From the sequence record NC_014792.1: a stretch of 64,000 nucleotides of DNA. One strand, 5' to 3'. The stretch is from Escherichia phage vB_EcoM_VR7. This document shows positions 11,816 through 13,099 of this stretch, piece after piece; within the stretch, counting starts at the first letter, position 1; each line of letters begins with the position of its first letter. The position numbers were made by a program, and so were the translations under genes. Under the pieces are notes generated by a model that saw only the letters and a list, made by a program, of their open reading frames with translations, searched no databases and was not told the DNA's origin.

Positions 11816-13099
11816 ATGACACAAACTACAGGTGAAAAAGAAGGCGTATTTTACGGTTATTCTCTTTATGATTTGAATAAAGAAAAACTAATAACTTTTG
11901 ATGAATTACTTACGGGTATTCAAGGAGAGCCCGGAGAAAATGGCGATATTGGACCAAAAGGTGACCAAGGCCCTGTGGGACCACAGGGTATTCAAGGGGA
12001 TACAGGTCTTCAAGGAGTTCCAGGAGAAAATGGTGCTATTGGACCAAAAGGTGACCAAGGCCCTGTGGGACCACAGGGTATTCAAGGGGATACAGGTCTT
12101 CAAGGAGTTCCAGGAGAAAATGGTGCTATTGGACCAAAAGGTGACCAAGGTATTCAAGGGGATACAGGTCTTCAAGGTATTCAGGGACCACAAGGACTAC
12201 AAGGAGACCCGGGAACGCAGGGTCCACAGGGTATTCAAGGTCTAAAAGGAGATAAAGGCGACCAAGGTATTCAAGGTGAAACAGGTGCTCAAGGTATTCA
12301 GGGTATTCAAGGAGTTCCGGGTGCCAAAGGAGATATAGGCCCAGTCGGTCCGGCAGGTTTAACATGGAAAGGTTCTTGGAATATTGCAACTGCTTACGCA
12401 GTTAACGAAGCCGTTGGACACGATGGAAGCCTATATTTCGCCACAGCTGAAAGCACCGGACAAACTCCTTCATTAGGTAGCGATTACTGGGAAGTCTTAG
12501 CAACGGAAGGGCCTGAAGGTCGGCAGGGCGTAGAAGGCGCGCAGGGTCCACAGGGTATTCAAGGTCCACAAGGTATTCAAGGACCTAAAGGTGATACGGG
12601 TGAAACTGGACTACAAGGTCTTAAAGGCGACAAAGGAGAGGCAGGTTTAACCGGACCACAAGGACTCCAAGGTATTCGTGGCGAACAAGGAGAAACGGGC
12701 GCACCGGGTATTCAAGGTATTCAGGGTATTGCTGGAGACCAAGGTCCTAAAGGTGACACGGGCGACAAAGGTGATACAGGTGCCACTGGTCCAGCCTACG
12801 AGTATAAAAAAGTATCTAGATTTACAATGCCTGCCGCTGGTATATCAAATTCTACTCCTTTATTCGATTCAGGATTAACAATAAGTATGTTAGGCGTCAA
12901 AGCTAATACATTTAGATTTACCCTTACTAATACAGGTTCAGCGTCTAGAGTTATTGATGGTGAAATAATTTATTTTGACCCGGACGGTACAGCAAAAAGA
13001 TTTGTTGTTCATTTTTCAATAGCTGCTGGTGAGACAACCAATTTTCGGTACGTACACGTATGCAATTACAACTCCCAGAGTTTTTACTTTAAATTTTAA
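11816..13099 (+). CDS. Collagen-like (Gly-X-Y) repeat protein with an embedded carbohydrate-binding-like motif; C-terminus probably continues in another frame to 13217
   Basis: Long GXY runs ([25 protein letters not shown]...) interrupted by W..G..Y......G.LY.A...W-type segment; GGAGG SD; perfect 90-bp tandem DNA repeats inside. Confidence 0.8.
11925..12190 (+). repeat. Perfect in-frame 90-bp tandem repeats (about 2.5 copies) inside the collagen-like gene
   Basis: Unit ggaccaaaaggtgaccaaggccctgtgggaccacagggtattcaaggggatacaggtcttcaaggagttccaggagaaaatggtgctatt repeated head to tail. Confidence 0.9.

Follow-up and report, generated by a model that had tools for sequence, protein, structure and literature searches.

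Genes and features at the locus

A stretch of 64,000 nucleotides of Escherichia phage vB_EcoM_VR7 (NC_014792.1), referred to below as the window, contains a gene for a collagen-like protein in which a unit of 90 base pairs (bp) is tandemly repeated. As sequenced, the open reading frame (ORF) of this gene runs from 11816 to 13099 on the plus strand and encodes 427 amino acids; the frame of its relatives reaches 13217, and would give 466 amino acids here if one T were removed. The product matches the Pfam family PF01391 in five stretches, with 141.1 bits against a cutoff of 27.2, and the records of phages VR5, VR25 and VR26 label their orthologues 'similar to VR7 gp196, collagen triple helix repeat protein'. 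The features that bear on the repeat are the following.

11816-13217, plus strand: collagen-like fibre gene (ORF list, Pfam Collagen, alignment to VR5 and ESCO10)
11915-12364, plus strand: collagen block 1, 50 unbroken Gly-X-Y (GXY) triplets, which holds the array (regular-expression count on the translation)
11911-12150, plus strand: tandem array with a 90-bp unit (Tandem Repeats Finder, offset-90 self-comparison)
11947-12036, plus strand: presumed source of the duplication, 90 bp long, starting with the 24-bp direct repeat TATTGGACCAAAAGGTGACCAAGG (identity to 12037-12126)
12037-12126, plus strand: duplicated 90-bp copy, 30 amino acids, absent from VR5, ESCO10 and the SRR22213611 contig (alignment)
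12127-12150, plus strand: third occurrence of the 24-bp direct repeat (sequence identity)
12152-12178, plus strand: 27-bp restart of the unit (IQGDTGLQG) after a skip of 18 bp (PVGPQG); VR5 has IQGETGAQG here (sequence, alignment)

Tandem Repeats Finder returned one array at 11911-12150, with a period of 90, 2.7 copies, 95% matches, no indels and a score of 431; it is the sole array scoring at least 150 in the window. When the sequence was compared with itself at an offset of 90, an exact match was found over 11947-12060, and this repeat of 114 bp is the longest exact repeat of collagen block 1. Perfect 90-bp periodicity thus extends over 204 bp (11947-12150, 2.27 copies), in which 11947-12036 is identical to 12037-12126 and the 24-mer TATTGGACCAAAAGGTGACCAAGG starts at 11947, 12037 and 12127. 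The last 60 bp of copy 1 match copies 2 and 3 perfectly, and its 5' third (about 11917-11946) differs from copy 2 by a few bases (EPGENGD vs. VPGENGA). All copies sit in the frame of the ORF 11816-13099, each unit encoding 30 residues of unbroken Gly-X-Y. A sequence-only reading of this DNA had described perfect head-to-tail 90-bp repeats in the collagen-like gene, with a 30-residue GXY block as the unit, and both points are confirmed. Its figure of about 2.5 identical copies is a fair one. The extent that it gave, 11925-12190, located the array correctly and erred in the bounds, as the array begins about 10 bp earlier and stops about 12-40 bp before 12190.

As a control for collagen-gene composition, collagen block 1 was shuffled 500 times under each of two schemes, in which either its 9-bp GXY units or its codons by position were permuted. 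The longest exact repeat in these controls was at most 35 bp and at most 22 bp, respectively. Since 114 bp were observed against no more than 35 bp in the shuffles, a chance origin of the repeat is excluded. Two further ORFs run through the array in frames other than that of the gene, 11898-12245 on the plus strand (115 amino acids) and 11906-12193 on the minus strand (95 amino acids); they were rejected as genes and are regarded as stop-free by-products of the repeat.

Length variation among related alleles

Comparison with related genomes, which the sequence-only reading had named as a check, yielded four sequence-related alleles of four different lengths. The 90-bp unit is present about 2.7 times in the window, 1.5 times in VR5, once in ESCO10 and less than once in the SRR22213611 contig (Logan contig L011, 1845-2597), each of these four alleles coming from a different phage species rather than from isolates of one phage. 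The closest allele, that of VR5, aligns across the entire gene and has 10 mismatches in 1039 aligned bases 3' of the array (99.0% identity), yet it lacks exactly 99 bp at the array, that is, one 90-bp unit and 9 bp more (DQG). This combination supports the earlier suggestion of a recent expansion. The second unit is wholly absent from ESCO10, which is about 9% divergent, and from the SRR22213611 contig.

The numbers of GXY triplets in the two collagen blocks of the protein also differ among phages:

Window: 50 in block 1, 32 in block 2
VR5: 39 in block 1, 32 in block 2
ESCO10: 39 in block 1, 39 in block 2
VR26: 38 in block 1, 60 in block 2
VR25: 38 in block 1, 66 in block 2

All indels between related alleles (99, 63 and 549 bp) are multiples of 9 bp, and ESCO10 has older arrays of its own, with periods of 36/108 bp and 45 bp, in addition to an insertion of 63 bp. 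Because of these varied triplet counts, 9-bp-multiple indels and separate arrays, the analysis supports repeat-mediated length change as recurrent in this collagen gene family, with the duplication in the window as its apparently youngest case. The proposal that the gene can change in length by slippage or recombination is likewise supported, as between phages, by the differing block lengths and the 9-bp indels. Scans of metagenome DNA gave no further variants of the allele, and scans of IMG/VR returned VR5, VR25 and VR26 only. A search for homologues of the whole protein, in which 8000 candidates were scored, was dominated by generic collagen matches, failed to recover VR5 and is unfit for counting repeat variants.

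Origin of the array

The array is best explained, with a probability of roughly three in four, by a single tandem duplication, recent and in frame, in which the 90 bp of 11947-12036 were copied to 12037-12126; one event is all that is needed. The ancestor would have held two identical 24-bp stretches exactly 90 bp apart, and this pair would be the remnant of an older, now diverged partial duplication. When 12037-12126 is removed from the sequence, two 24-mers do lie 90 bp apart, with a diverged partial duplication of older date between them. A slip in replication, or an exchange out of register, between the 24-mers would have added one unit and given exactly the present sequence. T4-type phages are highly recombinogenic, and deletions and duplications arise in them at short direct repeats, so that slippage and unequal recombination are both plausible as mechanisms. 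As the unit consists of ten GXY triplets, the reading frame and the glycine register would be kept.

The direction of the change could be reversed, a three-unit array being ancestral and kept identical by gene conversion, with units deleted from VR5 and the other alleles through those direct repeats. Mechanistically, such a deletion is no harder than a duplication, and the identity of the final 60 bp of copy 1 to copies 2 and 3 is what conversion would yield. Moreover, the window and VR5 have diverged by only about 1%, so that an old pair of 90-bp copies could have stayed identical by chance. Such a history is nevertheless improbable. The alleles next in closeness, those of ESCO10 and the SRR22213611 contig, lack the second unit as VR5 does, so that a gain in the window lineage is the parsimonious solution; block 1 of VR25 and VR26 has only 38 triplets; and the reversed order would call for several independent losses in place of one gain.

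Several considerations weigh against a single recent duplication, or limit what may be drawn from it. Perfect identity between copies gives no date by itself when the divergence is 1%, and the polarity depends on three comparison alleles only. The copy number may or may not still be changing, and an error of assembly is formally conceivable. Finally, the gene is frameshifted in this genome, as described below, so that the longer rod may never appear together with its tip and the consequence for the phage may be none.

A duplication of this kind would lengthen the protein. In a collagen triple helix the rise is 0.29 nm (2.9 Å) per residue (PMC3368898), and since each chain would gain 30 residues, the rod would become about 8.7 nm longer, block 1 passing from about 34 nm to about 44 nm.

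Anatomy of the gene and its damaged alleles

Apart from collagen block 1 and its array, the following elements were recognized in and before the gene.

11786-11793, plus strand: late-promoter-like AATAAATA, one base off the T4 motif TATAAATA, 22 bp before the start codon (sequence)
11807-11812, plus strand: Shine-Dalgarno sequence GGAGGA of the collagen-like gene (sequence)
11816-11914, plus strand: N-terminal non-collagen segment, 33 residues (comparison with relatives)
12365-12508, plus strand: central non-collagen domain, 48 residues, ending in DYWEVLATE, CBM 5/12-like (Pfam CBM_5_12)
12509-12796, plus strand: collagen block 2, 32 Gly-X-Y triplets (regular-expression count on the translation)
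12797-13217, plus strand: C-terminal globular domain, about 140 residues, predicted 10-strand beta-sandwich, broken by a frameshift
13042-13045, plus strand: TTTT run, against TTT in VR5, ESCO10 and the SRR22213611 contig (alignment)

The promoter variant AATAAATA may be active. Exact copies of TATAAATA number 19 in the window, where 4.8 would be expected, and the collagen-like gene has the one-mismatch variant only. The N-terminal segment of 33 residues is probably the end by which the protein attaches to the virion. Its DNA is nearly invariant in VR5 and ESCO10, VR25 and VR26 have the same first 35 residues in spite of different rods and C-termini, and the N-terminal motif is also found in P0002, P0125 and phrog_21621. 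The central domain weakly resembles carbohydrate-binding module (CBM) 5/12 (Pfam CBM_5_12, PF02839) over profile positions 2-43 of 44, with E=0.0055 and 17.2 bits, which is under the cutoff of 26.2; a precomputed PF02839 match is present in many homologues of the protein. The chains would be expected to form a trimeric triple helix. The fibre would then consist of an N-terminal anchor of 33 residues, two collagen rods around the CBM5/12-like domain, and a distal Ig-like beta-sandwich. Its description as a surface protein in the sequence-only reading may well be apt, and a dispensable trimeric fibre on the virion surface is the most likely identity of the product.

The gene is not intact as sequenced. 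Owing to the extra T at 13042-13045 the frame is lost and the ORF ends at 13099; the final 58 codons of the tip domain remain open in the next frame (ORF 13029-13217). The context of the run is AAT TTT CGG, and a +1 slip of tRNA-Phe before the rare arginine codon would regain the frame. A programmed +1 frameshift is thus conceivable mechanistically; it was rejected as the main explanation, as VR5, ESCO10 and the SRR22213611 contig have one continuous frame. Because the two-frame arrangement is not conserved, a recent mutation or a sequencing error in the homopolymer is the more likely reading of the TTTT run. The SRR22213611 allele is also damaged. Its first collagen block is interrupted by an in-frame stop, and an in-frame loss of 549 bp takes out the central domain and collagen block 2; the allele could be either a natural decayed allele or the result of a collapse in short-read assembly. 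Since two of the five sequence-related alleles are damaged in these ways, the collagen-like gene is marked as probably dispensable for the phage.

The homopolymer discrepancy has a further bearing on the array, as it hints at imperfect sequence quality within the same gene. Perfect repeats are a classic source of copy-number errors, and the extra copy could then be an artefact of sequencing or assembly. However, at 240 bp the array would fit within one Sanger or 454 read and within most paired-end inserts; the extra copy is in frame and keeps the glycine register; and VR5 independently has 1.5 units. An artefact is therefore very improbable.

The damaged alleles bear equally on the possibility of a contingency-type hypervariable locus, whose copy number would change frequently in lysates and would be selected to tune the reach of the fibre or the host range. 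Recombination in T4-type phages is generally known to be very active, and the four alleles have four lengths. Length-polymorphic collagen-like adhesins with repeat-number phenotypes are also known, for example Lcl of Legionella (PMC6460258). Against this, there are only 2.3 perfect copies, which one event explains; the metagenome and IMG/VR scans produced no additional variants; and breakage of the gene in two of the five alleles points to weak selection rather than to tuning. Such a locus is accordingly regarded as unlikely, and a single duplication is preferred.

Mosaic structure and genomic setting

Over the region 20000-32000 the window has 97.4% identity to vB_EcoM_VR25 and 96.4% to VR26, both of the genus Gaprivervirus, and by these identities it is assigned to the T4-type coliphages of the Gaprivervirus/Dhakavirus group. 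These coliphages are low-temperature phages. The order of genes around the array is gp24 (two copies), rnlB, 24.2, 24.3, the collagen-like gene, a Hoc-like gene, hoc, inh and uvsW. The two gp24-like capsid vertex genes lie in tandem at about 7500-10066 with about 66% DNA identity, and are annotated likewise in VR5, VR20 and VR26.

The collagen-like gene is itself a mosaic, with one boundary placed as follows.

11961-11987, no strand: left recombination breakpoint of the mosaic segment (alignments to VR25/VR26 and to VR5/ESCO10)

To the left, 11700-11961 has 99.6% identity to VR26, being VR25/VR26-like and clearly unlike VR5. From 11987 to about 13798 the sequence is 99% VR5-like, VR5 belonging to another genus, and is unrelated to VR25/VR26; similarity to the latter returns at about 13798, within the Hoc-like gene. 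The left crossover therefore lies inside repeat copy 1, in GXY-coding DNA common to both parents. Along with the rod and the tip, the swapped segment contains the variable part at the N-terminus of the Hoc-like protein. Internally repetitive GXY DNA would thus permit repeated changes in rod length and would also offer a crossover point for swaps of rod and tip modules between phages.

The Hoc-like partner and the site of the protein

The gene that follows the collagen-like gene, and the end of the unit that the two may form, are:

13227-14045, plus strand: second Hoc-like head-decoration gene, 272 amino acids, 9 bp 3' of the collagen-like gene (phrog_1149)
14047-14066, no strand: G+C-rich hairpin between the convergent Hoc-like (plus) and hoc (minus) genes

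The product of 13227-14045 matches phrog_1149, 'Hoc-like head decoration', with E=1.8e-57, and has a C-terminal domain in common with the product of hoc (14071-15186, minus strand). T4 Hoc is bound to the capsid through its C-terminal domain. On this evidence the partner is taken to be a true Hoc paralogue. The hairpin is likely to be a bidirectional terminator that closes a two-gene unit.

The pair of collagen-like and Hoc-like genes is found in VR5, ESCO10, VR25, VR26, KIT01, Kosakonia phage 305 and the SRR22213611 contig. At the T4-type loci the collagen-like gene lies between 24.3 and hoc, always with the Hoc-like gene 9 bp later, and in VR20 both genes are absent. The two genes thus behave as a cassette that is inherited together.

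Homologues in unrelated lineages outside the T4-type phages have similar surroundings. In the siphovirus Rogue1 a homologue with the same tip domain (gp21; L007, 5500-6945) has the prohead-protease region on one side and the major head protein on the other. The N-terminal motif is shared by gp011 of the Certrevirus CR3 (L012, 6992-8362) and by two metagenomic contigs (L009, 5121-6395; L010, 2412-3275), which additionally carry the tip domain; in all of these the homologue is flanked by major capsid or Inh-like genes and by the head-tail adaptor. The homologues in all three lineages examined therefore sit in head or head-neck modules and not in baseplate or fibre modules. In genomes of the CR3 type, three collagen-like genes are clustered at the head-neck position.

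These homologues in head modules are nonetheless annotated as tail fibres, RefSeq and PHROG using 'tail fiber' or 'host specificity protein'. The protein could be a genuine tail fibre or host-specificity protein, in which case the duplication would alter how far a receptor-binding tip extends from the baseplate. In addition to the labels, the resemblance of the central domain to CBM5/12 would suit this role, and collagen-like shafts are well known in the lateral tail fibres of Escherichia coli phages (PMC3368898; phi24B gp61). The labels, however, follow the low-complexity GXY region and are doubtful, since in tblastn the collagen region matches 1136 phage records, among them mycobacteriophage minor tail proteins. 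The head or head-neck position in each lineage speaks against a place among baseplate or fibre genes, and in T4-type phages the gene is gained and lost together with a Hoc paralogue and its disruption is tolerated. A tail fibre is thus a rather unlikely, though not negligible, identity. A location on the head or at the head-neck region is tentatively favoured over the baseplate because of the gene contexts, the co-inheritance with the Hoc paralogue and the precedent of SPP1 gp12, which is described below; the case for the head rather than the tail is still a little weaker than an even one.

A more specific and decidedly speculative proposal is that of a mobile 'head-fibre' cassette, in which a collagen fibre of about 70-80 nm, with its CBM-like domain and Ig-like tip, would be held on the T4-type capsid by the Hoc paralogue or by the conserved N-terminal 33 residues. 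The virion would bear long adhesive filaments, the reach of which would be reset by gain and loss of GXY triplets and by crossovers. To our knowledge, collagen-like head fibres have not been described in T4-type phages, and a cryo-electron microscopy study of phiTE (Certrevirus) does not mention one.

Relation to known systems

In-frame GXY expansion is already known in microbes as a means of changing fibre length, and the repeat is not surprising in itself. The collagen-like surface proteins BclA of Bacillus anthracis and Scl1/Scl2 of streptococci are length-polymorphic. The protein of the window resembles these and Lcl of Legionella pneumophila in its unbroken Gly-X-Y rod, its near-identical tandem units of several triplets and its globular C-terminal domain, as well as in the in-frame copy-number differences between related strains. 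In Lcl the repeat number alters binding (PMC6460258). The present case differs in that it is a phage gene with 2-3 units rather than 10-20, a rod split by a CBM5/12-like domain and a frameshifted allele.

A second likeness is to collagen-like tail fibres of the lateral or side kind in E. coli phages and prophages, namely EPclA-D of O157:H7 prophages and phi24B gp61. These fibres are trimeric and consist of an attachment domain at the N-terminus, a collagen shaft and a small globular domain at the C-terminus. Modular shuffling of collagen-like prophage fibres has been attributed to recombination (PMC3368898; bioRxiv 10.64898/2026.04.10.717836). In contrast to those fibres, the protein of the window has no PfN, PCoil or PfC domain, its tip is an Ig-like sandwich, and its gene lies in a head module beside hoc rather than in a tail-fibre module.

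The nearest precedent for a head location is gp12 of SPP1, a dispensable collagen-like trimer that is encoded among head genes and binds the centre of capsid hexamers (PMC7602432). Location among head genes and dispensability are the points of likeness, and capsid binding of the present protein is proposed by analogy. SPP1 gp12 is far smaller, has a short collagen stretch and is not known to carry CBM-like or Ig-like domains. With T4 Hoc and the Hoc-like Ig-domain decoration proteins, the collagen-like protein shares a chromosomal neighbourhood, a non-essential character and Ig-like or adhesin-type surface domains. It differs in having neither detectable similarity to Hoc nor a Hoc-type C-terminal capsid-binding domain. 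The present case shares the repeat logic of the known collagen-like proteins, but not their non-collagen domains or the position of their genes.

Significance

The array provides a clean, datable case of rod-length change, with one event, an identifiable homology of 24 bp and a 99%-identical relative without the duplication. It shows GXY-coding DNA of T4-type phages in two roles, those of an element that changes length and of a crossover point for the exchange of modules, and the 90-bp repeat offers a simple marker by which these phages can be told apart by polymerase chain reaction. The analysis also draws attention to an uncharacterised cassette of collagen-like and Hoc-like genes with a probably mistaken 'tail fiber' annotation. 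If the fibre does stand on the capsid, it would be a new type of head appendage for a very well-studied group of phages.

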